From the IMG/VR virus record IMGVR_UViG_3300043540_000321, positions 64,001-128,000 of that record: a DNA stretch of 64,000 bases, one strand, 5' to 3'. Position numbers and translations under genes: made by a program. Positions 1-63,621 of the stretch are shown one piece after another (positions within the stretch are counted from its first letter, which is position 1; every line of letters begins with the position of its first letter). Under the pieces are notes generated by a model. The model worked only from the letters and a program-made list of their open reading frames with translations, ran no database searches and had not been told where the DNA came from. Source of the stretch: a virus.

Positions 1-1614
1 TGTCGTCTTGGCTACCCCGGCTACCGTCGCATAGAGCTGCGTCGCCATCTTCTCAGCCGGACCGGCCCCAGGGGCAGCCTGGTACTGAGTCCCCATCATT
101 CGGTTGACAGACCCCCGGTCTTTCTTCTCCTGCTCCTTTCGCTTTTCACGGTACTCATCGAAACCTAGCGCCCAGTCGATGAAACGACCCGCTCCAGTTA
201 CAGCCGAGCCGATGAACCCGAAACCATTCTGGTAAGCATTAGCTCCAAAAACTTTATTAATTAAGTAACCCAACCCGGGCTGAGAAATTTCTTTGTCCAT
301 CTGTAAGATGGCACCTGGCACCTTTAGCTCCCCGGTTCTGGCTCGGTACAAGTCAGCGTAGATGCTCACCTTTGGAAGGTGTTTAGCTCCCAAAAATCGT
401 GTGAAGAACTCCTGGTCCATCACCGTTGGGAAGTAAGGCATCTCTGGCTCCAGACCCTTGTTCTGCGATCGTTTGGTCGCATAGTTCGTGATAGGGTCAG
501 AAGTGGGAGACATCACCTTGTACAGCTCGCCGCTCCCGAGTAAATACATTCGGCGCTCGATACCATTCATCGGTTGGGCATCGCCGCGAGCGTGATACTC
601 AATCAGTTGGTAGTCCTTCTCCATAGAGCCTAAGTAGCCCTGGAGTTGCCGAGCCAGCTCCGGATTATTAAGAGCCAGCAGGAGGTCTACAGACCTGTCC
701 TGTGTAGCAGCAGAGGTAAAGTTGTGTGAGCCCAGGAAGAGGGTGCCTCTATCTCTTCCGACGATAGATAAAGCCTTTGTGTGGAGGAGTAGAGGGTCCT
801 GCGCCTTAGGCATCACCACTTTAATGCCGGCTGCCGACAGTTGACTCATCGCCACCCGGTGCGTCCATGTATCTGTGGTTGCTCGAGGGTATTTACTGTC
901 GGGGTTAGAAGTGATGACTGTAACGTTAGCCCCTTTCTTCCGGGCCTCAATTAAAGACGCTACGATCTTGGGGTCGTCCAGGTACGGACCTGAAATCGTT
1001 ACCGACTCTCCTCGTTTGGTTCTTAATAAATTTGCAACAACGACATCGGTAGCCTGCCCACCGACCAGGACATTCCGGTGAGAGTACGGAATTTCTCCTT
1101 TAAGTGCTGTTGCCTGAACCTCTGCCAAACTCCTTACAGTTTGTGGGTCGCGGATGGCGACGGTTAGGTTGGTTTCAAAGACTTCCTTGGACGCGGACGC
1201 CCCGATTTGCCGAATGCGTTCGCGCAGATCTCTAGGAGCTTGAGCCAGACCGTATTTTGAGAGGTTCCCGGTAGAGATAAAAGCGACCGGGTCGCCTTCT
1301 GATGTCGCCACATAAGTTTTCATGTGGATACGACGCTGTTGTGAAGGGTCGGAGTAAAGCTCGATACCAACTCCTCTTTGAGCTTCCTCTCGCGCAAAGG
1401 CTAAAGTGCGGTCGCCTTCCTCCGTCTGGTTACCAAAATTGACAACCAGTCTACCAGCGGCAGGATTGAGTAGATTCCGATCGTAGGGGACAGAGTAGAG
1501 AGTCGCGGTCATCGAGCCGCGGTCGGCCATAGACAAAAAACGCCGAGTCTCTTCCCCGGCGTCATCACTTAACGCGAAGCGACGAAAACGGTCTCTCTCG
1601 TTTAAGGTCTCCAT
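1..1614 (-). CDS. 5'-complete, 3'-truncated large protein with tandem N-terminal PLD-superfamily domains; probable virion/ejected or tape-measure-like protein
   Basis: Not in the ORF track because there is no stop in the window. ATG at 1614 (METLNERDRF...) overlaps the stop of 1602..2240. The motif-bearing and 3'-most segments I translated are open in this frame. Motifs RIHMKTYVATSEGDPVAFISTGNL (H97) and LLHTKALSIVGRDRGTLFLGSHNFT (H278); later GFGFIGSAVTGAGRFIDWALG resembles tape-measure amphipathic helices. Confidence 0.75.
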   Translation of the reverse strand, partial: METLNERDRFRRFALSDDAGEETRRFLSMADRGSMTATLYSVPYDRNLLNPAAGRLVVNFGNQTEEGDRTLAFAREEAQRGVGIELYSDPSQQRRIHMKTYVATSEGDPVAFISTGNLSKYGLAQAPRDLRERIRQIGASASKEVFETNLTVAIRDPQTVRSLAEVQATALKGEIPYSHRNVLVGGQATDVVVANLLRTKRGESVTISGPYLDDPKIVASLIEARKKGANVTVITSNPDSKYPRATTDTWTHRVAMSQLSAAGIKVVMPKAQDPLLLHTKALSIVGRDRGTLFLGSHNFTSAATQDRSVDLLLALNNPELARQLQGYLGSMEKDYQLIEYHARGDAQPMNGIERRMYLLGSGELYKVMSPTSDPITNYATKRSQNKGLEPEMPYFPTVMDQEFFTRFLGAKHLPKVSIYADLYRARTGELKVPGAILQMDKEISQPGLGYLINKVFGANAYQNGFGFIGSAVTGAGRFIDWALGFDEYREKRKEQEKKDRGSVNRMMGTQYQAAPGAGPAEKMATQLYATVAGVAKTT

Positions 1615-37708: not shown

Positions 37709-38014
37709 ATGACTATGTATTGTGACCTAGAAATTTATTGGGAAGGGTCTGTAATAGCCCTATTAGACGGAGAAACAGACTTCGTCGAACCCTTTATTAA
37801 AACAGTTCGAGAGATTACGTCGGCTAAGATTGACTGGCACCGCTTCGAAGGAATAGCCCGCGTTCTTTGCCTGGTCGATTCTAAGGAAGAGTGGGACACA
37901 GTCTTCAAAACACTTCTATCCGAATACGATAAGCTGCCTGATAGTCAGAAAGACTTGGTCGACAAAGAGTTAAGGATAATGCGAACACATCCCAATTACC
38001 CAGAAGTCGATTAG
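37709..38014 (+). CDS. small counter-oriented hypothetical protein
   Basis: 101 aa, AAAGGAG Shine-Dalgarno; stop overlaps the stop of the giant gene. Confidence 0.65.
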   Translation: MTMYCDLEIYWEGSVIALLDGETDFVEPFIKTVREITSAKIDWHRFEGIARVLCLVDSKEEWDTVFKTLLSEYDKLPDSQKDLVDKELRIMRTHPNYPEVD

Positions 38015-41000
38015 CTGTAGCTATCTGAGACCGTTCCCATCAGTTCAGCTCTGCGGCTCGCAGTATCCTCAAACTCAGTTGCAATGGGAGTACTCTCGTC
38101 ATTAATGACGACTAGGCCTCCCATAATGTCCTGCTCAAGCTGTGTAGGAATGGCCGAGATATCAAAGTCGATCCGTTGGTTATCGTCCGTGTCAAGGACT
38201 TCATACTCCTGCTGTTGACTAAAAATATCTCTCAACTCCATCTCAGTTCGGTCGACCTGCTCGCCCGCCTCCTCTAGCAAATCCCCGACTCGGTCTGGGA
38301 TATACTCTCCAATCAGCGTTCTCTGCTGAGTAGCCCCTCTAGCGATCGACAAAGACGCAATCGTACTGAGAACTTCTGCCCCAACCGTAAGTAGAGCGGA
38401 CTTCCCGGACGGGGTCTCGTGTGTGCGACCGCTAAGTTTATCGACAAGGGCGTGAGAGACCGCGTTGATTCCGGCGAACATCGTCTCCTGAGTAAACCCT
38501 TGAACCGCACCCAGCATAAACCCTTCTGTTGCCATTGAGTTCTTGATGCGAGAGAGGGAGAATGCCACAGCAGCATCCTGAGAGTGTCCAGATAGCTGAG
38601 CGGTGGCCGTATCTTTCTGACTGCTCAACATCGCTACAGCCTGAAGGGTATCGAACCCGAACTGCCACATCCGATCGTCGAACTTAGCCCCAGCTCCAGC
38701 CGCCGCCAGCAGAAGGGGCGCGGTAAATGCCCCAAACATACTGGCATGTCGTTCGGACTTCTCCATCGCTCGAAGGTTCTCCACCGGAGTCTTTCGATCG
38801 AGAGGCGCGGCTGAAAGTTCAGTCAACTTCTCCTGAACATTTCGAAGAACCTGGTTTGCTTCAGGAGTCGTTCGGACAACCCCCATCTGCTGCACCTTGT
38901 CAAAGTTGATCTCCCCATGCTCATAGATGCCCGCCAACTGTCTTCGCATAGACTCGGCATAGCGTATCGAGTTCTCATCCTGCTCATGTAAACTCCCAAG
39001 GCTCTCTAGCTGGTCGAAGAGACCGTAGACCCCCTGAGAAATAGCTCCGGATGTTTTCTGGAGAACAGCAAGAGGGGTACGACCACCTGGAGACGTGAGC
39101 ATCGCTTCTGTCAAGATGGCCTGCTCCCCACGACTTAACCCAGGGAGTCCAACTCCCATCAGTTGAGCCGCTCGCTGTTGGTTAGTGGGTGACATGGCCG
39201 ATAACTGGTCGTAACCCCTCAGTCCCTGAAACTCAGCCAACTTGTAGTAGGCCATATAGAGGGCATCGGAGGGCATCAGTTGTTGCCCTCGCTGCAACAT
39301 TCGGATGTAAGCGTTGTAGGTATCGATGTTGGCCCCTATCATTCGTTCGGTAATGTCACCTGACCCAAACCGAACTCTGGAGGTCGCTTGGAAACTCTCT
39401 CGCAAGCCTTTAATCTGATCTACGGAGAGAACACCGAACTCTTTATTTCGATGCTGAATTTTAAGGAGAGTGGACTCTTGCACCAAGCGCTCGTTTAGCT
39501 GCCCCAGGTCAGAAGTCGCAGACCGCTGCTGCTCATACTCGGAGACCAGGTCATAATACTGACGGTCTATGCCAGACAGTTTATTGCTGTCAGCCTCCGC
39601 GTGAAAGTCTCTCAACTGGTCAACATAGAATTGCTTAAAGTCAGATGAGAGAGTGGAGCTGATAAAGGCGGCCTGCGATCGCTCGAGTAAACCCTGGATC
39701 TGAAGTGCTGCGAAGTCTGCGACATTAGAAGCTCGACGCGACAACCTTGCTCGACGATACTCTTTCTCCAGCCCAGGCTGTTCCACGAACCGTTTGTGCA
39801 GGTCGGTCTCGTCATCCGACATGGCGAACTCAGCCAACCGAAGCAGGGCACCGAAACCCGTTATCCCCGGATCGTGAACCTGACCTTCTCTTAAACGAGC
39901 GGCTGTTCCTTCCAATCCAGGTGGCGTTGAGATGTCTGGACCCAGTCGAGTCGAGACGACCTTCTTAATTAGGTCTATGCGGTCGCGGTCGGTCTCCGCC
40001 TCTTCGATGAGTTGAGATAGGGGTTTGCCATTGGCATCTGCCTGGCGGAGAATGCCGATCAAACCTTTCTCCGATTTCTCCTTCAAGGCATCTCGAATGA
40101 GCTGCTGCATCGTACCGAGAGTCCCAACGGTACCACTGTAATTCTCCAGCAACATTCCTCGGAGTGAGGACGTGTTATCCATCAATTTCTCTCGAAGTCC
40201 GCGGATCTCCTTCCGACGACGAACGTCTCCTTCTCGCTGCTGCATAGCCAGAAGGTTAGTGTCCAACGTTTGCTTGAATGATTCTGCTCCCGTTGTTTGC
40301 AAGCCAGCCGAGATAGACTGACCCATGATCGCCCTGTCTAACAGGGGAATTAATACGTTGTAGGTCTTTCCAATCAGCTCGGTACCGGCCTGCCCGATAG
40401 TTGCTTGTAACCCCTCCATCTCAAAAGGATTAACAATTGTACCGGCTGCCTTCTTCAGACTTTTATTAATTTGCTCAACGCCCATCGCCACGTTCGCCTG
40501 AAATGCAAAGTAGTCTCTGGACTTACTCAAAAATCCCTCGAGAGTGTCACTTCTAGAATGTGTAGTCAGGGCAGACCACTGACTGCGAATGTCTTCAGGC
40601 AATTGACTGAAGCGGGCGTCTTTCTCCAACCCAGACAACTCTGGCGAGAAGGGAACGCCTCCTTGTAGAGGGTCAAAGAACTTCTGTAGAGCTGCGAGTC
40701 TTTCCTCCGTTTTATGAAGATGTGAGCGGGCATCCTCTATCTGAGGCATTGTGCCGGAAAGCTGCTGAACCATTGCCATCAACGTTCCAGTTGAGACCTT
40801 CTGCTCGTTATTGATGATGAAGTCTGGAAAGGCTACATAGCTGCCAACCCACTTCCGTACGTCTTTCAGAGCGCGAGATGGTGTTCGATCAAGATGAAGA
40901 CTATTTTTATTAACCTCTTCGATACCTTCTGTCAGTTGTTGATAGTGCGTCTCAAGCTCGCCTCTCAGGATTTCAGCCTGTTCGCTAAGAGAGCTCATCT

Positions 41001-44000
41001 TATATAGATGCCCGGCGTCATCGATATCAATATCGAGGTGACGATCAACTTCCGCTTCTATTCGTGTTAGTTGCCGGGTCTTGCGGGCAATATCTTTCTG
41101 AATCCCATGAAGCTCAGCCGCCCGCTTCGTTGTGTTGGTCAGCAAGAATTGGTAGGCGTCCCCATCATAGTCACCAAGCATTGAAAGCAGTCGACCGACC
41201 GCCGGAGCCGCCATCATAGTTCGAGACCGCTCTGTGTTGGGTATCAGCCCACCTCCGGCCTGTCGTACTCTGTCCTGGATAGTCGAAAGGTCTACGGCGT
41301 TATAGACATTCGTTTCGTTTGTCAGTCCGGCTGACCCCGCCGGAGCACCCCCTCTTCGAACGGCCCCTTTCGAAAGGGCCAGCACGTTAGACAGCTCGGA
41401 AGTCCTGCTGTTTAATAAATCCTGTACCCGCGCCTGCGGCAGGTTAGTCATCGCACTGATAGTTGCCGCCTTAAGGTCTAGAACCTGTGTGGCAGATAAC
41501 TTTCTCTCTCGAATGCTCTGCTGGGCACTTTCAAACATCAAATCGAGAGAGTGCCGAGACATGATGCCCGATTTGTCGTCTAGCTCCGGTCCTTTTAACC
41601 CGATCGAGTTAATCAACTTCCGGGTGACTTCCAACATTCGAGCCCCGTGCTCCGGCGATCGCAGGGAACTCTGCTCGATCAGGTTGAACTGAGCGCTGAG
41701 CATCTGCCCAAAGTTCCGATCTTCAACCAAGGCGTGGAACCTCTTGCCCAGTCCCACCTCATCTGGATCCAGGGCAAAAGAACCGACGGCGATGCCAACC
41801 GCACCTTCGAAAGTTTGGCGGTCGCCCATCGCCTTACGAACAAAGTCTGTCCCCAACAAATGGACCAGACCTAAACGACTATTTTCTAAACTATCCTGGA
41901 AGGTCTCTAACTTCCTCTTCTCTGCCTCACTAATGATGGCCCCGGGCTGCATGAGTCGTCCGCGCAATTCCTCTGTCTCAACCAATTGGCGGCGAACGTC
42001 AACTTGGTGGCGCAAACCTTCATCGATATATTGCGGGAAGATGAAGCTGATAGACCGGAGGATGTCCGTTCCCATCAACACACCAAGAGATGGTTTATAG
42101 CGCTGGGGGTCTAAAAGTGAAACGCGATAGCGCCCATCATTTGTAGATTCAAGTGAGAATTTAGGCAGAACAATCTGCTTCGTTGTTCTTACCTCAGATA
42201 GGAGTGCTCTGACCTGTCCATCCCAGGGAACTTTCTCCTGCCTCTCAGATAACTCTGTTTCAAGATGCAGGGCTCCTTCAACGAACTGTTTATAAAGATT
42301 GGTATTTAGGTTTTCTCTAATCGCATTAGCCTGGCGATCGCTAAGCTCCTTCAACCGAGATTGGACCTTACGCCGGATGACTTCATCATCCGAACTCAAG
42401 GGGACACCCACCAGGCGATGACTTCCCTGACTTAATTCGCTAATGACTTTGTAGTGACGCTCAAGCTCTGAGATCGCCCGCCCGCCCTGACCAGACTCAA
42501 CAAAATCTTGGAAGGAGACGGATTCCTCACCGGTAGCTCGTCGGACTCTTCGATCGGCGACAAAACGAGAGTAGGAGTCTGAGACTAACTTTGTGACTAT
42601 CTCCATCGGTGAGAGGCGGCGGTCACCGTCTTTTGCGTACGTCTCACTTAGATGGAGTTGTTTCATTAAGCGCTTCGTCTGCAGCCGGCCCGCCGGGGAG
42701 TCTTGGTCGGAAAAATAAGGTACTCCGTAAGTCCGACTTAAGGTAACGCCCCGTTCTTCAAGGTGGGTCTGCCCTTCCCCGGCAAAGGTCGTAGCTATCT
42801 GCTGCAAATTAATAAATCTTAGGAGGTATCCTCGCTCAGTACCTGGGCGCGTACCAACGCCTCGAATGGCGTCGTTGAGCAGACCCATCTTGTAGCCGAG
42901 AGATGTGTACCCCAGAAGGAATCGTTGAGTATCTAGATGGAATCGACTGGTAAATCCAGGTTCATCTGATGGGAGCGCGAGGCGATACTCCATCGCGGCG
43001 TTTGGGTCTTGCAGTCCGAGAGTCAACGACCCTGACAATACGGCAAATGCTTTATGTACTTGCTGTGCTCCGTCTCCAGCGATCGGCTTGAAGGCTCGCA
43101 GATAGGCTGAACTCAATCCAGTCAGGTATTGATACTCCAGGGCAACTTCGTCTTTGCTGCCCGCAGGAACGAGCGACCTGGAGACAGACATGTCTCGAAG
43201 GTCTTGAATGATGAAATCGTTCTTGATGTGAGCTTGTAAAAGCTCCATCGTCGACTTGACTTTGTGCCGGGGGTCGTCTGGTTTAAGCGACAGGTTTGCG
43301 TTCGCGGCGACCGCGTCCACCATATTGCGATAACCCGGATCGGTGTAGTACCGGTCTATGTCAGATAGATCTTGCTCAAATAAGGTGCCGACACTGGCTC
43401 CTGGAGCCGTAGACCGTCCAAAGATTTGTTTCGATATAAAGGCGGTGTGTGCCAACAGCCCAGCCCCTCGAACGATGAGACTTCCTTCGTTCAGCCCCAC
43501 CCGACCCTGACTGAATCGAATAGAGTGAGCTGGGTCAGAAACAGCCGCCGTAATGAGTTTGCCTGCTTGACGTTTCAGGTGCTTAGAAGCACCTTCATCT
43601 CCCCTCAATGCTTTAATGACAGTCTGCTTCAGGCTAGATAAACTGCCGGTTTGGACATCTTTATCCGCGTTCACACCATCGGCGAGTAGGGTTAGCCCCA
43701 AGGCAACTTTCCCTAAGGTGGATGCCGGACGTCCCTCGTCATCTACTTTGGCAAAGTCGGTGCCCTGAACCATTGCGATCGCATGAGCAACAAACTCTAA
43801 GTTCGACCGTTTCAAATTTCTCTGTAGCTCAGTCTTGACCGTTTCATCCCCCAGAAAAAGAAGGGATAAAGACCGAGCCAGTTCTTGACCCGGAAGACTT
43901 TGTAACGCTTCCCGACTCGATCGCTGACTCAGAAGGTAGATGCCTGACTCATAGTTGAATCCCTTAAAGTGAGAGAACCCAAACAACCCGTAGACCTTTT

Positions 44001-47000
44001 CACCTCGAACAGGCTCTGGCATTAAAGACCCTGGGTCTCGCTTGGAGAAGGTTTGCTGAATGTCTTTGAAGAGAGACTCTTCTATAACGGTGAATGGCCC
44101 CTTAACCAGCCCGGCACCGGCTGGACGCGAGCCACTACCCGCTCTCCACACCGCCATTGCATCAGTAGTAACTGAGATGAGTCCACTCTGAGATACATTA
44201 ACGTGGGGATCTTCGGTAATAACCGAAACACCTTCCTGATGACGTTTGCCGAACGCACCGAATTTTACAGTGAGGGTTTGTCGCCTTCTGCCCCACATCG
44301 TCTCTGCAAATGATGCCGCTTCCTCAAGCTCAATAAGACCTTCGCGACTGAACTGGGCCGTCCTTTGATAATCACCTTTTTCTTGATCATAGTTATAAAG
44401 ACCTTCCTTCAAATAAAGTTTGAGTTCGCCCCGGTCTCGTTTTAAGAGGTAGTGCGCGTAGCGTCCGCCGTCAAACTGCTCCAGCTCTGTCTGGAGTTGG
44501 GTGTCTCGGATGCTTGGATTTTCGGCTGTCCTCTCAGCTAGAAGTTGAGATACCCTTTGATTCTCTGCTTCAATAGGAGCCCCGATGACTACACTGCCCT
44601 TCGCGAGATAACGGCTGAGTATACCAATAGTCTCAGTTTGAGACTTAATCTGCTTACTTGAGACTTTAACCGTGACTCGTTGAGGGTCGCCCAGGTCAAG
44701 CTTGTAGCCTGAGTTAACCCAGCTCGAGTCGCCCACTAATGAGACTCCTCCAATAAGAGCAACTCGCTTCATAGCCCTGGGACCTATAACCCCGTGGTAA
44801 GCGTTGTTTGGGTCCATCTCAGCCTGGCGGAAGTACTCTTGAACCTTCTCGAAATCTCCGTTGTATTGAGACGCTACTCTCTTAACCTCTGCAAACTGCA
44901 TAGCGGGGAGAACTTCACGAAGGCGACCAGACACCAGAGAGTCAGCCTTCAACTCTGCCACGCTATGAGAGAGCGATCGCACCTTATCGGCCATCTCACT
45001 ACTGATATCGATGGCTGGGCGGCTGCCTCCCACGTTCTTCAAACGTTGTGGGATCTGTTCGGGTTTCGGGAAGGGGAGCAAGAACATCGTGTCTTGCTCC
45101 TCGGTGATTGCCTGGGCCGATCGCTTACTGACTAATAAAGTCTGGAGTTGCTGAACCTCCTTTGACCACTGCTCTCGACTAACAGAAGCTAGACCGGCAG
45201 TGCCCTTCAAGAACTTTTCCATGTCATGGGCCGTCGCCGCTCCGATGCTGATGTCAGAGTCCACCACCGTTAGCTGTCTTAGCCCGCCATACGCTGTAAT
45301 CTTCAGCGGTTTTGCTTGAGTCACCGCACCTACCGCTCGGTAGAACTCCCCTGCTTCTCCCAGACGAGTACCAGACTTCACCTCAGCCGGGTCTAAGACA
45401 CCGGCTGCAATAACTCGGTCATAGGTCGTGTCTAATGGGAATTTACTCTCTTGAGAGTAAACTGGCAGACGAGCCACTGCTTGCAGCCCCGAGTATCCAA
45501 GCTCGTGAGCAGCCAGGAAGGGAGCCGCCAGGTCAGAGACAATTCGATAGGTCTGAGTGGACTGGGCCGCGAAGAACTTTCTTCGGTTCTCATCGGAACG
45601 AAGGAGAAGTTTTAACTTCAGGTCTTGGAAGAGATTCTGCTCATCGAGAAGAAGGACATCCGTCAATCGATGCTGAGCGAACAAATCTCCCTGGTGTTGA
45701 AGGAGCTCATCGAAAACGACCCGGAGATAATTCTGTCGCTTGGAAAAGTCCGCCTCGGACAGCGTGCGCGTGTAATCTTCTATTGGAGAATCGACTCCTG
45801 CTGCCAACACCCGCTGCGCCTGGTACACAGTAGATGAAGGGGAGATTCCTAATTCTTTAGACGCGGACTTAATACCAGACATCATCGTCCGCAGGTTCGC
45901 TCGTCCCTGTCCGGACTCGACAGCCTGGGCTACTTCTGGAGCAACCATCGCCAAAGATTCCGCGATGATGTCGCGTGCCGCCGCATGTAAATCTCCCGGA
46001 CGCTCCTGAACCATTCGGTTGAACAGAGAGTTCACCAGAGAGTATCTGGACTGATAGCTCAGCTCTCGAGACACCGTAGCTATGAAGGACACGGCAGTCT
46101 CCATTCCAGAAAGTTGGGTAGACTTTCCAGGTTGAATCTTACGTCCGAACAGAGAGATAGGAGAGGACGATTTGTTCGCAAAGACAGACCCAGGAATGAG
46201 CTTGTTCTGATCGACCAGGATTACGTTTCCGTGGCGATCGACTGTCAAGTTGATTATGAGAGAGCCGGATATGGAGTCAACACCTCGAACACGAACCTTC
46301 AGTCCAGTCTGTGAAGCTGGGGAGTCTGGGCCGGTCTTAAGAGTGTATCGCCCCTCAACCTCGATGACTGAGCCTCCAATTTCACGATTCAGTTTCTCCA
46401 GAGCTTGTCGGAGCTGCTCCACCTGAGAGACGTCCGCGTTACGCTCAGCCAAGAATCCCGTCTTGTATAACGTCTGCCCGCGGTCCATCTTTTTGAGCAG
46501 GTCGCCCGCAGATAGCACGTTATAGTGCTGCTCCAGTTTTGACTTCTGCTTCAACTCCTGCAGATAGCCGTCCGGGTCCAGCCGTTTCTGAACTGGGCGG
46601 TGCTCGTCGCGATAGCGGCCCGCACCAACTGCGACTACCGTGTCCAGGTTGATGGGAGATTCTGGGTCGAAATCTGTGAACGTTCGCTTCGCTGCATTCA
46701 GAGCGTTATTAAAATATTCATCCTGGAAGCGATTGAGCTGCGAGACTGGAATCAATGAATCGGCGGAGAAGTTTGCAGACCCCACACTTAAGAACATCAA
46801 CTTCTGGTCAGTCCCTCCAAAAATTGAGATGGATTTGTCATGTTGATAGCCCGTCGTCGCCGTCCGGATCGAACCCGTGTCTATGAGCAGTCGAATAAAG
46901 GTCTCATCAACTCCAAGTGCCTGCGTGCTCCCTCCAAACTTTGCATCTCGAAGTGAGTCGAAGAACCCAGACAGCCGAGAGTTATCGGTAACGATCGTCA

Positions 47001-56361: not shown

Positions 56362-56436
56362 TAGGGGAAGACCAATAGTCTTCCCCTACTCCGTCGCTGG
56401 GTATTGGTAGCCCAGCTTGAAAAGTTACTTCGAAAC
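56362..56436 (+). promoter_or_regulatory. repeated hairpin module, copy 1
   Basis: 11-bp perfect IR (56362-56388), then GTCGCTGGGTATTGGTAGCCCAGCTTGAAAAGTTACTTCGAAAC, then GGAGG and ATG. Confidence 0.7.
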
Positions 56437-56446
56437 GGAGGATTTT

Positions 56447-56656
56447 ATGGACAGCAAACTACTACAACTAATCGCCCTTTCTCAAACTACTGAAGTTGAT
56501 ACGACTCAAACGGTCTATCAACTCAAAGTTAAAGGAATTCCCTGTGGACTCTTTAACGAGATAGGCGATGCAGAAAACGCAGCCGAAGACGCTGGGTTCG
56601 ATTGTCGCGACTACCAAATAGTCGTCTTCTCAGAACCGGACGTTAAAGCCTGCTAA
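56447..56656 (+). CDS. small early hypothetical protein
   Basis: GGAGG Shine-Dalgarno before ATG 56447; 69 aa. Confidence 0.65.
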   Translation: MDSKLLQLIALSQTTEVDTTQTVYQLKVKGIPCGLFNEIGDAENAAEDAGFDCRDYQIVVFSEPDVKAC

Positions 56657-56661
56657 GACTT

Positions 56662-56740
56662 AGTCCTGCGATCGAACGATCGCAGGACTTCTCCGTCGCT
56701 GGGTCTGGTAGCCCAGCTATGACAAGTTACCAAACGAAAC
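56662..56740 (+). promoter_or_regulatory. repeated hairpin module, copy 2
   Basis: 13-bp perfect IR (56662-56689), then GTCGCTGGGTCTGGTAGCCCAGCTATGACAAGTTACCAAACGAAAC, then GGAGG and ATG. Confidence 0.7.
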
Positions 56741-56751
56741 GGAGGTCTATT

Positions 56752-57060
56752 ATGGCTACCACAACAACAGTTGCAACCGTAAATGAACTTAACTATCTGT
56801 CTGCTCGCCTGCGTGCAGAAGGGTTTGTCGTTAAAGTTCATAAGCTTGAGCAGGGTTGGGAGCTGACACTTTCCGAAGGCGGAAGGCCAAGCTCATTTCA
56901 ACCCAAACAAACGGAAACCGGTGAGGAGATTATCTTCTTTAACCTATCCGAGTTTAAGCGAGGTGAGGCAATGGCTGCCGATCTTCGCGAGCAAGGAATT
57001 GCTTGCAAGTTCGCTAAAGCCAAGAGTGGCAGATGTTGGTATCTCAAAAGACTTGCATAG
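56752..57060 (+). CDS. small early hypothetical protein
   Basis: GGAGG Shine-Dalgarno before ATG 56752; 102 aa with two similar L.A.LR..G repeats. Confidence 0.65.
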   Translation: MATTTTVATVNELNYLSARLRAEGFVVKVHKLEQGWELTLSEGGRPSSFQPKQTETGEEIIFFNLSEFKRGEAMAADLREQGIACKFAKAKSGRCWYLKRLA

Positions 57061-57073
57061 TCTACAACAAAAC

Positions 57074-57112
57074 AAACAAAAGAGGAGCTGAAAACAGCTC
57101 CTCTTTTGTTTT
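57074..57112. terminator. bidirectional intrinsic terminator
   Basis: 17-bp perfect IR AAACAAAAGAGGAGCTG-AAAA-CAGCTCCTCTTTTGTTT. Confidence 0.75.
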
Positions 57113-57124
57113 AAGGAGGTCATT

Positions 57125-57283
57125 ATGTTGGAAGCAATCTTGATGGATTTAGCAATTGAATTAGTTGTTGATTGCGTGTTAGGTGCTGTTATTGCAGATG
57201 CTGAATTAGGAATTCTTGAACCTTTCGTCAGTGAAGGGGTAAAGGAGCTCGCTAAGAAGATCTACAAGAATCGCAAAGGCTGA
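57125..57283 (+). CDS. small hypothetical protein (52 aa)
   Basis: AAGGAGGT Shine-Dalgarno; MLEAILMDLAIELVVDCVLG...KIYKNRKG; below the track cutoff. Confidence 0.65.
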   Translation: MLEAILMDLAIELVVDCVLGAVIADAELGILEPFVSEGVKELAKKIYKNRKG

Positions 57284-57289
57284 ATTTAT

Positions 57290-57367
57290 AGGGCAGAGAA
57301 AGTAATTTCTCTGCCCTGTTTTGGTCGCTGGGTATTAGTAGCCCAGCCTGACGAGTTACTACGAAAC
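57290..57367 (+). promoter_or_regulatory. repeated hairpin module, copy 3
   Basis: 12-bp perfect IR (57290-57317), then GTCGCTGGGTATTAGTAGCCCAGCCTGACGAGTTACTACGAAAC. Confidence 0.7.
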
Positions 57368-57390
57368 CAAAACAAAGCGAGGACAAGATT

Positions 57391-58089: not shown

Positions 58090-59256
58090 ATGGCTACCAA
58101 CAATTTTGACCAATCAACCCTGTCGATCGTTGATGAACTCTTCAAGTCCTTGTTCAAGGAAGAAGATACAACGATTGAAGTCGCTGGCCGCAAATTTAGG
58201 CCAGCGGTCCTAAAACGGAATACGCTCAACCTTAGCGACGTTCCCAGGACAGTCCGGGAAACATTCTCTTTCCACAAAGACTCGATTGTTCAGCCCAGGG
58301 AACGGGGTCGGCACTCTATCATCGTCACGCTCCTCTCTATGAGGTTCTCTGACGATGGTCAGATGCTGGTTGCAGCTCCTTCTATCCAAGCCGCCACCTA
58401 TAGCGGAACATCTAAGATGTTGCCTGTAGGTGACTGGAACCAGAAGGCGGTACTCACAGGGCGGGACCTTTTCATTCAAGCGGATTTTATGAGCTCGGAT
58501 GATGGTCTCACTATTCTCAACCCTGTTGTTCTGAAACGTCCGTACCCAGCCGGTAAAGATGATGGAAACGTCTCCGTCATGCTGTGCGGTTCGAACAAGA
58601 CAGATAGCAACTGGAAGGAAAAGCACAACCATGCTCGAGACGAATTTAGGAAGGCAGCACTCAATGTTGCCCAGAGGTTAGGCGTCCCTTCCGGAGAACA
58701 GTTCATCATTTGCCTTGTTGGATTTCCGGTTAGGTCGGGAGAAAACAACGGTGAGACTGATTCGTTCTGGGGAGCCATCTTAGAAGGCGGTTACCTTCTG
58801 GGTGGTCGGCGCATCAACCGTGTTAGTAAGGCTCCAGACCCGAACGGCAAGCTAGGTGGTTTGAGAATCTCCTCAGATTTCCAAGTCACCTCCTGTAAAA
58901 CCGTGGCTCAAATGCTCGAAGAACAGTTAGCTGCTCAGTTAGCTACTCGATCTGTTCAGGTCGATCCTAAGTCTGAACCTGAACCTGAGCCAGTGCTTGA
59001 ACAACCTGAACCTGAACCTGAACCTGAACCTGAACCTGAACCTGAACCTGAACCCGTGGTTGAGCCTTCTCAACCACGGCGAGAAAGTCTCTTAGAGAAG
59101 TTGGGTCCGATAACCAATGACTCTGATGAATTTCAACTTCTCGAAGAGTCCTCGGACGATGAGGAAGAAGTGTTCATGGGCAGGGTCGGAAGCATCGCTG
59201 AATTGCTGAAAACCAATATCAAACCGGGCAGAGAGGATAATCCCTTCTGCCCTTAA
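58090..59256 (+). CDS. hypothetical protein with (PE)n linker and acidic tail; SSB-like candidate
   Basis: 388 aa, AAGGAGG Shine-Dalgarno; beta-rich core and acidic C-terminus, upstream of the RNAP and helicase genes. Confidence 0.6.
   Translation: MATNNFDQSTLSIVDELFKSLFKEEDTTIEVAGRKFRPAVLKRNTLNLSDVPRTVRETFSFHKDSIVQPRERGRHSIIVTLLSMRFSDDGQMLVAAPSIQAATYSGTSKMLPVGDWNQKAVLTGRDLFIQADFMSSDDGLTILNPVVLKRPYPAGKDDGNVSVMLCGSNKTDSNWKEKHNHARDEFRKAALNVAQRLGVPSGEQFIICLVGFPVRSGENNGETDSFWGAILEGGYLLGGRRINRVSKAPDPNGKLGGLRISSDFQVTSCKTVAQMLEEQLAAQLATRSVQVDPKSEPEPEPVLEQPEPEPEPEPEPEPEPEPVVEPSQPRRESLLEKLGPITNDSDEFQLLEESSDDEEEVFMGRVGSIAELLKTNIKPGREDNPFCP
59005..59052 (+). repeat. (CCTGAA)x8 coding tandem repeat
   Basis: Eight exact hexamers encoding PEPEPEPE... 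Confidence 0.95.
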
Positions 59257-59265
59257 GGAGGTCAT

Positions 59266-62200
59266 ATGGATACGAAAGTTCTGTGCAAGAACTGGAACGT
59301 ACAAGCTGACCCGTTCTACGCAATGTACAAGAGAACGGGGCATAGCCTTGACGATGTCCAGAGTTTAACACCCGCTGAAGCCGTGCGGGTTGTGTTCGGG
59401 GATGCGGTCGGTGACGCGATCGCTCCTGACGGCGATATCGAAGGCTCACTTCAAAACGTAACTCTGTTTGCTACATGGTGCTACATGTACCTGCGGCAGA
59501 AAGTTTCTACCGTCAACTGTCCCGTGAATCTTGGAGAAGAGTTCTACCTGGAACTCACTTCAGCTCCATTCATGGGTGCTGACTTGCTGTGTCAGATTGG
59601 TCAGCAACTTACAGATGACGCTGTTATTAAGGAAGCTCGCAAGGTGATGGAAACTTTGATCGGAGCAGGAGATAAATACCGTGAAAACCTGAGTCGCTTG
59701 GCTCAAGCATACGGATTGATTCCCTCTGCTATCCGGCAGGGTTTGCTATCCGCCTGTATCTCTAAACTGACAGACCGCAAGGTCCTAACCTTTGCTGCCT
59801 GCCAGAACGTTATCGAAGAGGTTGTTGGTGTAGCTCCCAGCAATCTGGTGTACGTCAACCCTAATTGGATTCGCTTCGGCGACTTCCTGGCTACTGCTCA
59901 GGACGTTGCTGTTGTGCTGAATTGGCTATCCCGCGCATTTAGCGATGTCTTTGAAGTCAAATCCTGCGATGACGGGTTTAACTTCTGGGTTGAAGGTACT
60001 CAGTTTCACTGCACGTCTAAGGACGGCGTGTTCCACATTGAACGCAATCGGCATATCAATGGGATGCTTTTAGTTAATAGCTCGACTGGTCGGCACCCCA
60101 CCGAGCCAGTTGACCCCGAAAACCTGTCGCTCGTAAACAGCTACGGTACGGTCATCTACGCTCTGTTGTATGGAGCGCCTGGTTATGTTAACAAAGGCAA
60201 AGGTTGGGACAGCTTCGTCAACAAAGTCCTGGTCAAAGGAGACGAATATCCTTTGACATCTGAGGATGAAGTTGGACCCGCAGATGGCGATCGTAAGTTT
60301 CACGAACGCTATGTAACGGTAACTCGACCTCAGCCCGTCGACGTTCCGTTTGCGCTCATTCGCTTCACGGACGGCTGGTTTCTCAGTACTCAGTCTGTCT
60401 CTATGAAGACTGGTTATGCCACCGAGTCAGAAAACAGCGTACGCCTACCGCAAAATAGCTCTATTGACAAGGCTGCTCTCTGGGCATTCAACCTAGTTCG
60501 GATGCCAAGCGGAGCTCTTATTGATGGACGGCGGAGCTGTATTCAACTTCGACACACTCAACAACCAGCCAACTTTGCCAAGGCTATGATGTTGAATCTG
60601 GCCGGCACCGACGATATTCTGCGAGCTGAAGGTTATGCCCGCTCCATCGTTAAGGTTCCAGACGGAAAAGATACCTGGGAACACCTGGGTGAATATCTGA
60701 TCGTTGGCTTGTCTTCGAAGTTAGCCAAGCTGATTAAACGGACAGCATCCGATGCTGCCGTTGTCGCAAAGTTAGAAGATGGGCAGTCTCGTGGGTTCAA
60801 GCGGTTCGGACAGACTAATGAGTCAACTAACAATTGGCTCGTTGAATCTGTTGTCTCTGCACACGCAATCTGGCCGGCTGGTATGGCCTGCTATTGGGGT
60901 GATGAGCCTCAACTGTTGGTTGACCATACGGAGTCCATTCAGTTGCCTTTCAAGGGTGATGTAGATGAGACTACAGTGAGTGTGCCTTATACCGAGTACA
61001 TGGGTGAAGTCTATCTGGAAGATGGATGGTTCAAAGTTACGATGACCACCCCAATTCCAATTGACAAAGGTGGATTGGCTGGAGAAGTCCAGGTGTGCTG
61101 CAACGGAATCGAATATCCGTTTGCTATCACATCCAAGACTCCGGACGCTCAGCTCGTAGGTGTCGAATGGCAAGAACGCCGTGGCTACGGTGACCTCAAG
61201 ACTTTGTTCGTCAAAGTAAGGACTATCACCGTGGAATCCGAAATCAAAGCTCGGAATGGTGTGAAGGCTATGCTGACCCGCTACGACCGTCGGTGCTTGT
61301 CCCTCAATAATGAGGATATCGCTGCTCGTGCGATTTTCTTCAAGGACACAAACAAGTGGCTAGACCTGGCGACTCAAATCTGCGATATCGCTGCTTGCAC
61401 AGCTATCCAGAATAAAGATCCGCAGGGCCTAGCTCTTATTCACTCTGCCAACGCCGCCGCTGGTGTATCTCATAGCGACTATCTGGAATGGTCTCCCGTG
61501 CTCGCTATGATTGGCGTCTATCAACCTCTACTCAACTGGTTCGAGTCCAAGTTTGGTCGCTCGATCTGGTTCAAGTGGGAAGATTCCACTTGTGACTGGA
61601 CGACAGTGCTGCGTCTCATGTACACGAAGCACGACAGTCCGAATGAAGCCGAGCGAGCTGAACCAGTTGCTGGTTGGAGCTATGTCGACCATGACAAGCT
61701 TGACTTTCTACCCAGCACAGCATCTGATGTGCTGGCTATTGCAGACGGTGACTTCGAGGATGAGCATACGAATGTTGTAGTCATCTACCGCGTCGGCGGT
61801 ATTGAATACTTCGTTCAACGTGCTTATTCCTTCGCTGGAACCTCGGCTACCGGACCCGTTTGGCAACCAGTTAAGGCTGAGTTGTCTAGTGTTCGTGCAG
61901 GCGTGACCCAGTCTCCTTTAATGTCTGGAGTTATCCGGGCCGTTGAAGGTAAAGATTTGGACTATGCCACACGACTGGCTGCGGATGGTCTGCAACACGT
62001 TCAACGTGCCTCTACTGTTACTCGGATGGCTCGAGGTCTGGGTGGCGTGCAGAATGTTGTACTCGGAACGCCTGACGCAATGTCCGTTCTGTGTACAGAA
62101 GAATTGCAAGAGCTGGTGACCAACCCGCTACTTCAAGGTCAGCTCGTTAGAAAGTTGGCTGAGCAGTTCCCAGACACATTCTTCATCGTGCCTGGTGCTT

Positions 62201-63594
62201 ACGGGACATTCAGCCTGCATCTACCTACCGTGGTGGAGCAGGACGGTTCCGATAACCTGTGTTCAAGTGTGACAATGGCGGGCCTGACCGCTCAGCTACT
62301 GTCACTAGCTATCCTGGGCGCAGGTGCTGACGACAAGGTTTTCTGTGCGATCGCTCGTTCTCTGAACGGTGCGATTCGGAAACTTGCCGAAAGTGAAACA
62401 CTGGCGAAAGCGGCCGCCTACGGTCGCGTAGGCGTCAGCGCAAAATGTAAAGCGCTGCCGGGTATTGGTGTGGGTGAAGTTTGGATTAGGTTTAGCATCC
62501 GACACAACTCTGTTTATCAAACCATGAGAAGAGTTATGGGTAAGGACCTTGACGGCCGTAAGGTCCTTATGAGCAGAGCTCCGATGACAAACCCATCTGT
62601 CCTAAAGGTCAGAGTTATTAAACCCATTCATCCGATGGGAGACTACGTTGAAGCCGACTCCATTTATCTGTCCCCTCTAGGGCAGATGTTAAATGGTGGG
62701 GACTTCGATGGAGACCCTATCTATCTGACGGATGCTAATGACTCAAACCTTCCTGTAACAACGTTGAAGACTATCATCGACAACGTTATTGCTAGAACAG
62801 GCAGTGACCAACTCAACCCAGGTGCATCCTACTGGGGCGACCACTTCGAAATTCTTTCTGCTGATGCTGTAGCTGAGAAGCGCACTATTGGCAAGAAGAA
62901 CTTGTCCATGCTCAATGACGATGGCCGGAAGGCTCTGCCTACCATGTTAAAAGGCTCTTCAGTAATGTTCGAGTCCGCCATCAATTGGGCTCACAGGATA
63001 TTCCTGACTTCAGACCTATATCTATCTCTGATATGGGCGCTGCAGGAAGACCTGATGGTCAAGTACCCGGGGTGGAAACCCAATTCATTCACTCAAAACC
63101 GCTCTCTAGTTCTCTTGTTGGCTGAGCTATACGAGATCCCATTAGGGGGACTAGACTGGAATGCTCATGACGCTATCATGGGCGGGTTGGTCCCGATTAT
63201 CCGCGACCTTAAAACTCAGTTCGACGGCGAACAGGTTAATAAGTTCGTGGCTGACTTAGAGGCGGCTGGAATCAAACGTGGTGGAAGAGATATCCATCGC
63301 GCAGCAGTCCAAGCGGCTGAATGTCGCAAGCTGAGCAGTGTCAAAGCGAAAGTACCACTGCCTGCTGTTATTCACGGAACCACTCCAGAAGGTTTTCTCT
63401 GTGCCGTGTCTGAGATGTCTTCGCTCATTAGCAAAGGCGACTTTACTATGACGAGCAAAGTTCACGCAACGATGGCATGTGAGATTGCTGATTGGCTTAC
63501 CAAGCATGACGCAGATGGTAAACTGACCGCGAAAAGCACTGTTCTGATGCAGATCAGACAGTATCTTGACCTGATGGTTGAGGGTGTCAAGTAA
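59266..63594 (+). CDS. single-subunit two-barrel (DPBB) DNA-dependent RNA polymerase, YonO/crAss/P23-45 gp64-like class
   Basis: EIKARNGVKAML (K661/K667, like beta GDK..GRHGNKG); YGRVGVSAKCKALPGIGVGEVWI (beta' region C-like); VLMSRAPM (R1104); IYLSPLGQMLNGGDFDGDPIYL (D1146/1148/1150). Confidence 0.88.
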   Translation: MDTKVLCKNWNVQADPFYAMYKRTGHSLDDVQSLTPAEAVRVVFGDAVGDAIAPDGDIEGSLQNVTLFATWCYMYLRQKVSTVNCPVNLGEEFYLELTSAPFMGADLLCQIGQQLTDDAVIKEARKVMETLIGAGDKYRENLSRLAQAYGLIPSAIRQGLLSACISKLTDRKVLTFAACQNVIEEVVGVAPSNLVYVNPNWIRFGDFLATAQDVAVVLNWLSRAFSDVFEVKSCDDGFNFWVEGTQFHCTSKDGVFHIERNRHINGMLLVNSSTGRHPTEPVDPENLSLVNSYGTVIYALLYGAPGYVNKGKGWDSFVNKVLVKGDEYPLTSEDEVGPADGDRKFHERYVTVTRPQPVDVPFALIRFTDGWFLSTQSVSMKTGYATESENSVRLPQNSSIDKAALWAFNLVRMPSGALIDGRRSCIQLRHTQQPANFAKAMMLNLAGTDDILRAEGYARSIVKVPDGKDTWEHLGEYLIVGLSSKLAKLIKRTASDAAVVAKLEDGQSRGFKRFGQTNESTNNWLVESVVSAHAIWPAGMACYWGDEPQLLVDHTESIQLPFKGDVDETTVSVPYTEYMGEVYLEDGWFKVTMTTPIPIDKGGLAGEVQVCCNGIEYPFAITSKTPDAQLVGVEWQERRGYGDLKTLFVKVRTITVESEIKARNGVKAMLTRYDRRCLSLNNEDIAARAIFFKDTNKWLDLATQICDIAACTAIQNKDPQGLALIHSANAAAGVSHSDYLEWSPVLAMIGVYQPLLNWFESKFGRSIWFKWEDSTCDWTTVLRLMYTKHDSPNEAERAEPVAGWSYVDHDKLDFLPSTASDVLAIADGDFEDEHTNVVVIYRVGGIEYFVQRAYSFAGTSATGPVWQPVKAELSSVRAGVTQSPLMSGVIRAVEGKDLDYATRLAADGLQHVQRASTVTRMARGLGGVQNVVLGTPDAMSVLCTEELQELVTNPLLQGQLVRKLAEQFPDTFFIVPGAYGTFSLHLPTVVEQDGSDNLCSSVTMAGLTAQLLSLAILGAGADDKVFCAIARSLNGAIRKLAESETLAKAAAYGRVGVSAKCKALPGIGVGEVWIRFSIRHNSVYQTMRRVMGKDLDGRKVLMSRAPMTNPSVLKVRVIKPIHPMGDYVEADSIYLSPLGQMLNGGDFDGDPIYLTDANDSNLPVTTLKTIIDNVIARTGSDQLNPGASYWGDHFEILSADAVAEKRTIGKKNLSMLNDDGRKALPTMLKGSSVMFESAINWAHRIFLTSDLYLSLIWALQEDLMVKYPGWKPNSFTQNRSLVLLLAELYEIPLGGLDWNAHDAIMGGLVPIIRDLKTQFDGEQVNKFVADLEAAGIKRGGRDIHRAAVQAAECRKLSSVKAKVPLPAVIHGTTPEGFLCAVSEMSSLISKGDFTMTSKVHATMACEIADWLTKHDADGKLTAKSTVLMQIRQYLDLMVEGVK

Positions 63595-63597
63595 ACG

Positions 63598-63621
63598 AGT
63601 GGGGTGGCCATCCACCCCACT
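63598..63621 (+). terminator. hairpin after the RNAP gene
   Basis: AGTGGGGTGG-CCAT-CCACCCCACT 10-bp stem; weak U-tract. Confidence 0.5.

Follow-up and report, generated by a model that had tools for sequence, protein, structure and literature searches.

The locus studied here raises two questions: what is encoded by the 1442-codon gene near the end of a 64,000-nucleotide stretch of viral DNA, and for what would a phage use such a protein? The whole stretch (hereafter, the window) comprises bases 64001–128000 of IMGVR_UViG_3300043540_000321, a 195,211-bp viral contig rated complete by CheckV. An initial annotation had described the gene product, P0001, as a single-chain two-barrel RNA polymerase of the early/replication region, followed by a PIF1-like helicase and belonging to a lineage likely to be annotated only as hypothetical. 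In our analysis, the conserved residues and the predicted fold indicate a single-chain two-barrel nucleotide polymerase with an intact catalytic site. It had been missed that the partnership of this polymerase with the helicase is conserved, which changes the likely mechanism and opens a replication-type alternative.

Sequence and predicted fold of the polymerase

When the coordinates of the gene were re-translated (positions in Table 1), every motif of the initial annotation was found at the residues given, and their conservation across 70–73 aligned homologues sets them apart from chance matches. The search of 1.84 billion cluster representatives for homologues of amino acids (aa) 560–1442 recovered 81 representatives at E ≤ 1e-3, of which 29 reached E ≤ 1e-30. 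Among ~72 homologues, K661 and K667 of the first barrel were invariant (72/72 each), and R663 was found in 71/72. In the second barrel, R1104, P1106, G1145, D1148, G1149, and D1150 were invariant in the 70–73 homologues aligned, while D1146 differed in one; the aspartate triad was thus retained in 72/73 (D1146), 72/72 (D1148), and 70/70 (D1150). K1060 was invariant or nearly so across 70–73 aligned members, and the basic motif preceding the first barrel was also kept (K485, 70/71; K488, 71/71; K491, 66/71; R492, 71/71). That the proposed catalytic residues are so well kept speaks for an active enzyme. R1104 of S-R-A-P is the equivalent of R425 in the N-R-A-P of Escherichia coli beta-prime, which contacts the ribose of the nucleoside triphosphate.

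The motifs follow one another as in the cellular beta/beta-prime (Rpb2/Rpb1) enzymes, beta-like first and then beta-prime-like, although these are multisubunit and P0001 is a single chain. K-x-R-x-G-x-K is similar to K-x3-R-H-G-N-K of beta and GRVGVSAK to GKRVDYSGRS of beta-prime, as are SRAP and GGDFDGD to the cellular NRAP and NADFDGD. Compared with the cellular enzymes, P0001 gave no Pfam RNA_pol domain match, and no sigma or TFB-type partner was found.

By sequence, nothing above threshold was obtained for P0001 in Pfam, in PHROGs, in the PDB (phmmer), or by tblastn against 50,697 phage genomes. The only Pfam signal was to RdRP (PF05183) at aa 1070–1154, with 11.4 bits against a cut-off of 23.8 (E 0.13), and this family was matched in one of 20 relatives (E 0.028). 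P0001 resembles the PF05183 (QDE-1/RDR) clade in its look and probable working but is not a member by sequence. No sequence or profile similarity was found to the families of crAss gp66 and P23-45 gp64–gp96, and the PDB matches of the family profile were limited to its helicase part. No relatives were found among 185,579 prokaryote species genomes, and a scan of viral contigs for related genomes gave one. Complete members of the family are 1100–4100 aa long and no homologue cluster is named, in agreement with the expectation that relatives would be annotated only as hypothetical; no description of the family was found in the searchable literature. In two related phage lineages (L015:9989–14500 and L016:10001–14496), the polymerase is encoded by two genes, of ~1108 and ~373 aa, with a clean break inside the second barrel. 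The break comes after the GRxGxxAK strand region and before SRAP, and a separate GGAGG ribosome-binding site precedes the second gene.

The predicted fold agrees with the motifs. The AlphaFold2 model of aa 560–1442, built from a 33-sequence alignment, had a predicted local distance difference test score (pLDDT) of 90.2 and a predicted template modeling score of 0.88. With Foldseek against the PDB, the top 50 rows were all two-barrel RNA polymerases, at E-values of only ~1e-3. In a search of 48,161 representative chains with VIA-align, which does not depend on Foldseek, the top rank went to QDE-1 (Z 13.4, 367 residues aligned), ahead of RDR2 (Z 12.2, 358 residues). They were followed by isolated double-psi beta-barrels, P74 gp62 (Z 9.2), Pol I (Z 9.1), P23-45 gp96 (Z 8.6), and other largest subunits, while crAss gp66 was aligned over 376 residues at Z 7.1 and PolD over 169 residues at Z 6.6. 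The alignments to QDE-1, RDR2, gp62, gp66, and PolD begin at model residue 96–97 (aa 655), just before KARNGVK, and span both barrels; the first barrel was not matched alone as an isolated double-psi beta-barrel. The second barrel (model residues 496–611), on the other hand, superposes on isolated barrels at Z 9.0–10.4 with a root mean square deviation (rmsd) of ~2 Å, among them the designed msDPBB_sym2 (Z 9.0, rmsd 2.0, 84/86 residues) and the Cdc48 N-domain (Z 10.1–10.4). Model residues 481–874 align to largest subunits, including NRPD1 (Z 11.8), Pol I A190 (Z 9.1), and others (Z 8–12), and the 43-residue helix at aa 1224–1266 of the model is a candidate bridge helix. In the ESM Atlas, the nearest shapes belong to viral single-chain proteins in which Rpb2_6 and Rpb1_2 occur together; viral clusters of ~700–980 aa with helix-turn-helix domains are among these shapes, one under the name "RNA-dependent RNA polymerase family".

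The N-terminal model had a pLDDT of ~90 for aa 20–330. In a wide VIA-align search it gave no match at Z 5, the best rows having Z 3.2–4.6. The rows covering most of this model were vaccinia Rpo132, Xanthomonas beta, NRPD2, pieces of the AR9 and phiKZ non-virion RNA polymerases, Pol III Rpc2, and plastid PEP, that is, the N-terminal halves of second-largest RNA polymerase subunits. These rows are a lead to a chain that may be organized with a beta-like half first and a beta-prime-like half second.

Taken together, the AlphaFold2 model, the Foldseek and VIA-align matches, and the alignment over both barrels support the single-chain two-barrel polymerase proposed in the initial annotation. Its likeness to gp66 and to gp64-type enzymes was also found, but QDE-1 and RDR2 were closer than both. 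QDE-1 of Neurospora and RDR2 of plants (PDB 7Y7P, 2J7N, 7ROZ, and 7W84) are the best match over both barrels and the helical region that follows, at Z 12–14 over 340–370 residues and with 11%–14% sequence identity. Like P0001, they are single-chain enzymes with a DxDGD triad; unlike P0001, they are eukaryotic enzymes of RNA interference rather than phage proteins, and the 480-aa N-terminal region of P0001 is of a different, weakly beta-lobe-like kind. QDE-1 has as partners the QDE-3 (RecQ) helicase and RPA, which binds single-stranded DNA (ssDNA), whereas the partner gene of P0001 encodes an SF1B (superfamily 1B) helicase.

Among phage enzymes, the non-virion RNA polymerases P23-45 gp64, P74 gp62, and P32 gp64 are single-chain and two-barrel like P0001 (Z 9.2–10.6; P23-45 gp96, Z 8.6), but the gp64-type enzymes of Thermus phages have no detectable sequence similarity to P0001, which is more than twice the size of gp64. 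The gp66 of the crAss-like phage phi14:2 (PDB 6VR4) has the two-barrel core in common with P0001; it is, however, virion-packaged, self-inhibited, and encoded in a block of giant genes, whereas the gene of P0001 is part of an early-type operon and the sequence family of the protein is a distinct one. YonO of SPbeta is a single-chain two-barrel phage RNA polymerase of ~100 kDa, of the RdRP-like clade.

Distant homologues were found in the Fukuivirus cyanophages Ma-LMM01 (gp064, MAP_064, 1673 aa) and MaMV-DC (ORF65, 1677 aa), where they are annotated as "hypothetical". Among viral proteins, MaMV-DC ORF65 gave the best structural match (BFVD E 8e-21, template modeling score 0.54–0.57). Both proteins retain K-x-R-x-x-x-K, QRTPM, and GDADGD; their identity to P0001 is ~13%, and the profile E-value of 2e-6 was obtained against a handful of sequences. 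In Ma-LMM01, annotated 42-bp tandem repeats (6.7 copies, positions 43271–43551; L025:5272–5552) lie between gp064 and the gp054–gp063 cluster, and no genes outside this cluster were classed as early in the published transcriptome (PMC5780444).

The helicase and the neighboring genes

The PIF1-like helicase reported to follow the polymerase is indeed the next gene and encodes 713 aa. It matched AAA_30 (6e-16, 59.2 bits) and PIF1 (1.4e-7, 31.8 bits) in Pfam, with a weak match to Herpes_Helicase, and PHROG 325 (Dda-like helicase) at 1e-35. Many members of the polymerase family carry a C-terminal extension that, in the family profile, matches PIF1 structures in the PDB (Bacteroides PIF1, 5e-18), and the phage's own helicase matches this part of the profile at 7.5e-63. 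By domain mapping, the helicase is fused C-terminally to the polymerase in 20 of 84 homologues. It is also the next gene in all six unfused loci with a readable downstream gene (the phage's own, L010, L015, L016, L022, and L023); the locus of P0036, where the contig ends, was left out of this count. A complex prediction with polymerase aa 980–1442 and helicase aa 15–550 gave a score of 0.00 without controls, which is evidence neither way. Among the BFVD matches of P0001 are giant crAss-like proteins bearing the name "DNA helicase" in UniProt, and the link between polymerase and helicase may be general across the phage branch of the superfamily. For YonO, we know of no reported helicase partner. 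For P23-45, a helicase is nowhere mentioned in the paper on its two RNA polymerases (PMC10770324).

Directly upstream of the polymerase, and translationally coupled to it, is a gene for a 388-aa protein. Its homologues occupy the same place in L010, L015, and L016, with 31%–33% identity in alignment; in the closest relatives they are ~390–500 aa long, and all end in an acidic stretch and NPF[A/C]. This tail is reminiscent of the C-terminal tips of single-stranded DNA-binding proteins (SSBs), although the searches gave no support for an SSB fold: the 388-aa protein had no match in Pfam, PHROG, the PDB (including by profile), or the ESM Atlas, and one relative had a non-significant match to a Gp2.5-like SSB (E 0.13). 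We can only speculate, from the sequence, that it may be an ssDNA-binding or adaptor partner. Rfam at gathering thresholds gave no RNA family in the window between 48000 and 64000, including at 56364–57374, where hammerhead ribozymes had been proposed. At window 57074–57111, the sequence can form a strong palindromic hairpin, its stem 17 bp long.

TABLE 1. Positions of the polymerase gene, its motifs, and associated features in the window
Feature	Position	Strand	Remarks
3395-aa open reading frame in structural block	38011–48198	–	LGDYDGD at aa 2343
388-aa upstream gene	58090–59256	+	Translationally coupled; conserved core, Pro/Glu-rich linker, acidic tail ending NPF-C-P
Shine-Dalgarno AAGGAGG	59255–59261	+	Strong ribosome-binding site; four bases before ATG 59266; overlaps stop codon of upstream gene
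1442-aa single-chain two-barrel polymerase (P0001), predicted	59266–63594	+	Only long frame there; translates without stops
N-terminal region, aa 1–480	59266–60705	+	Confident fold; weakly like N-terminal lobe/protrusion half of beta-like subunits
Basic motif S-S-K485-x-x-K488-x-x-K491-R492	60712–60741	+	Family-invariant
K661-A-R663-N-G-V-K667	61246–61266	+	First (beta-like) barrel: basic pair and arginine
D694-T-N-K697	61345–61356	+	Invariant pair, first-barrel region; D694 72/72, K697 72/72
Second (beta-prime-like) double-psi beta-barrel, aa 1052–1170, predicted	62419–62775	+	Holds GRVGVSAK (K1060; begins at G1053, 62422), SR1104AP1106 (RAP, R1104–P1106, 62575–62583), and GGD1146-F-D1148-G-D1150 (GDFDGD, G1145–D1150, 62698–62715)
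43-residue helix, aa 1224–1266	62935–63063	+	After second barrel, followed by helical C-terminal domain; DSSP helix 665–707 of model
GC-rich hairpin, 10-bp stem	63598–63621	.	In 46-nt spacer between polymerase and helicase genes; no T-run after it on + strand
SF1B (PIF1/Dda/RecD-like) helicase gene, 713 aa	63641–64000, on to genome position 129782 (L006:641–2782)	+	Pfam, PHROG

The polymerase gene belongs to a + strand operon with small genes and genes for a deoxynucleoside monophosphate kinase and peptidases, divergent from a – strand structural block. The placement in an early/replication region was only half right: the operon looks early, but the recognizable replication genes lie at ~26–50 kb of the 195-kb genome, outside the window, and the gene is therefore in an early-looking operon and not in the replication module. 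That module encodes a split family-A PolA, a DnaG-like primase, RecA, SNF2/DEAD helicases, and a PD-(D/E)XK nuclease. The exonuclease and N-terminal polymerase part of PolA is at L003:9624–10994 and the C-terminal polymerase part at L003:12644–13651; between the two there is a gene for a D12-class adenine methyltransferase. DnaG was also found in both of the other homologue-carrying genomes tested.

As to transcription, Pfam gave no Sigma70_r2, Rpb1_2, or DnaB_C match in the genome. The Pfam search for a T7-type RNA polymerase also gave no match, but the search control was likewise silent and the result is uninformative. Sigma-70-like promoters in the window between 48 and 64 kb were at chance level (15 found, 14.3 expected). 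Apart from one giant protein, no recognizable RNA polymerase or sigma factor was found elsewhere in the genome. This exception, a 3395-aa frame without a Pfam or PHROG match, lies within the structural block. A related 195-kb IMG/VR phage has a conserved counterpart (G001; 3314-aa frame, 44% identity), as does MaMV-DC (ORF82; 24% identity, E 8e-10), and Ma-LMM01 gp080 carries LGDFDGD; Ma-LMM01 and MaMV-DC each have, besides the homologue of P0001, a ~3560-aa homologue of the giant GDxDGD protein. From its motif and position, the 3395-aa GDYDGD protein is a candidate virion RNA polymerase. Together, this giant candidate and P0001 would fit the plan of P23-45, in which a giant virion RNA polymerase is paired with a smaller, non-virion one that is made after infection (PMC10770324).

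A probable role in transcription and the alternatives

What, then, would a two-barrel polymerase do next to a helicase? We consider it moderately probable, from the sequence, the model, and the analogy with known enzymes, that P0001 acts together with the helicase as a DNA-dependent RNA polymerase, one that is non-virion and independent of sigma factors. The enzyme would be made after infection from the early-looking operon and would then transcribe later phage genes. The co-transcribed SF1B helicase and the polymerase would form a functional unit, in which the helicase would move 5'→3' on the non-template strand, opening the duplex, and the opened single strand would be fed as template to a polymerase of an ssDNA-preferring clade. 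The upstream acidic-tailed protein could take part as an ssDNA-binding or adaptor partner.

The persistent joining of a member of an ssDNA-preferring clade to a 5'→3' helicase fits this model of a helicase-supplied template. For crAss gp66, ssDNA and denatured double-stranded DNA are efficient templates, whereas native double-stranded DNA is transcribed poorly if at all; QDE-1, in turn, depends on RPA and the QDE-3 helicase (bioRxiv 10.1101/2020.03.07.982082). A transcription role is also favored by a genome that has its own PolA and DnaG-like primase, no Sigma70_r2 or Rpb1_2 match, and sigma-70-like promoters only at chance level around the gene, and by the conservation of the giant GDYDGD protein alongside P0001. 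The non-virion character and a middle/late role are suggested by the position of the gene and by the precedent of P23-45, which has both virion and non-virion two-barrel RNA polymerases (PMC10770324). We also infer that the product is RNA and the template DNA, that the polymerase and helicase bind each other, when the enzyme is made, and that virions lack it.

Several points weigh against this reading. The invariant K485–R492 motif falls in a poorly modeled segment of the N-terminal model (pLDDT < 50) and is without a placement in the fold. An enrichment analysis of intergenic 9-mers gave no repeated promoter-like motif that would mark a regulon. In Ma-LMM01 and MaMV-DC, no helicase was found among the tested ORFs (open reading frames) adjoining the homologue, so the coupling of polymerase and helicase is not universal. 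In the transcriptome of Ma-LMM01, all gene classes were put to host sigma-70-like promoters by BPROM predictions (PMC5780444). The closest solved relatives, QDE-1 and RDR2, also copy RNA. Lastly, the polymerase, the SF1B helicase, and the acidic-tailed protein resemble a primosome, and because there is no DnaB-type helicase in the genome, the helicase could be replicative.

This resemblance leads to the main alternative, in which the pair would be primosome-like, with the SF1B helicase leading and the two-barrel enzyme forming RNA primers or origin R-loops in its wake, in analogy with T7 gp4 or the herpesvirus UL5–UL52. The herpesvirus UL5 is a PIF1-like SF1B helicase, and in T7 gp4 the primase precedes the helicase, an order matched by polymerase then helicase here. 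The conserved fusion or adjacency of the helicase, its weak Herpes_Helicase match, the upstream protein with its SSB-like acidic tail ending in NPF, and a genome without a DnaB-type helicase match all fit such a role. However, a DnaG-type primase is encoded in the phage's own genome and in both other genomes tested; with PolA and this DnaG-like primase present, the two-barrel enzyme is not needed as the only primase. In addition, the gene is ~75 kb from the replication module, an enzyme of 1442 aa with a candidate bridge helix and beta-lobe-like domains seems built for processive synthesis, and we know of no two-barrel primase. We therefore hold this alternative to be unlikely.

Since the nearest solved structures are QDE-1 and RDR2, and the sole Pfam signal is the sub-threshold one to RdRP, P0001 might instead, as those enzymes do, use ssDNA or RNA as the template for antisense or double-stranded RNA and not for mRNA. 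Such regulatory RNA could serve in host shut-off, in countering host defense, or in the timing of phage genes, and the set of helicase, polymerase, and possible ssDNA-binding protein would parallel QDE-3, QDE-1, and RPA. YonO, on the other hand, transcribes DNA into mRNA, and we know of no use of double-stranded RNA for a bacteriophage. No other non-virion RNA polymerase or sigma factor was recognized in the phage genome. The characterized phage members of the clade (gp66, gp64, and gp96) also transcribe DNA into mRNA (PMC10770324), and we consider the regulatory role quite improbable.

There is a slimmer chance still that P0001 itself is packaged in the virion and injected as an early RNA polymerase, as are crAss gp66, the N4 virion RNA polymerase, and P23-45 gp96. 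The distant family members of 3300–4100 aa adjoin structural genes, including PAAR-motif genes and another giant ORF, and the BFVD matches include giant crAss-like proteins. But the gene of P0001 is in a + strand operon divergent from the – strand structural block, and inside that block the 3395-aa GDYDGD protein is the better virion candidate. Finally, it is very improbable that P0001 is a two-barrel DNA polymerase like PolD, or a structural relic that has lost catalysis. PolD DP2 is among the structural matches (Z 6.6), but RNA polymerases score far above it and the phage already has PolA; against a dead enzyme, all the catalytic residues, including the ribose-contacting arginine, are invariant in the family.

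The phage, its host, and the meaning of the polymerase

The HIP1 palindrome of cyanobacteria, GCGATCGC, is present in 78 copies in the whole genome, against three expected, and close relatives of the locus have nblA near the polymerase. Together with the best structural match, which is from a Microcystis phage, these findings identify a likely cyanophage and thus point to a cyanobacterium as host. In a search of sequencing runs, the polymerase stretch was contained in a sole public run, a DNA run from a hot-springs metagenome that is probably the source of the phage, and no RNA run was listed.

Other features of the genome were also observed. The AT-rich palindrome TTTAWTAAA occurs in 46 copies genome-wide, inside and between genes (for example, at window 23268, 27122, and 41411); the genome has a GC content of 51%, and simple arithmetic from base composition gives an expectation of ~1 copy. 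An iteron-like array of ~17 copies of ATGTTAGTGGA/TCCACTAACAT, in both orientations, lies within one 430-bp intergenic region outside the window (G000:C1:3690–4120) and looks like a replication origin or a partition/regulatory site. An intein bearing a LAGLIDADG homing endonuclease interrupts a class II-like ribonucleotide reductase of 1148 aa (L007:11103–14549). Two genes of the IS605 OrfB/TnpB type have a Cas12f-like TNB domain (L003:3464–4756 and L009:1317–3032), and a similar gene is found near the polymerase locus in L010. A 4700-aa ORF (L005:512–14614, – strand, extending into window 1–1614), with endolysin and metallopeptidase PHROG matches at aa 4200–4610, is probably an ejected or tail-associated polyvalent protein. 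Lastly, in a 312-aa protein (L008:14752–15690), an FHA domain and the catalytic domain of an adenylate/guanylate cyclase are found together.

To our knowledge, single-chain two-barrel RNA polymerases come from few phages, namely, SPbeta, the crAss-like phages, and P23-45. The kind of enzyme described here is therefore already known; what is new is a sequence-distinct large cyanophage lineage and the recurrent link with an SF1B helicase. This link bears on a question raised by crAss gp66, that is, how enzymes preferring ssDNA read a double-stranded phage genome. It is a tentative and rather unlikely idea that the polymerase–helicase pair, possibly with the acidic-tailed protein, is a self-contained RNA-making machine that works on helicase-generated ssDNA with no promoter-melting factor. 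If this is true in the extreme, phage DNA replication would have a two-barrel primosome or R-loop initiator, with the first two-barrel enzyme to act as a primase; in a milder version, the machine would be the viral prototype of what QDE-1, QDE-3, and RPA do in the RNA silencing of eukaryotes.

For transcription by P0001 and its helicase, which is the reading we prefer, the consequences reach known phages. The Microcystis phages Ma-LMM01 and MaMV-DC would each encode two unrecognized RNA polymerases, a prediction that can be tested in a culturable system; the transcription of Ma-LMM01 was previously credited wholly to the sigma-70 RNA polymerase of the host. In the phage studied here, the genes suggest that it transcribes its own genes with a polymerase–helicase pair.

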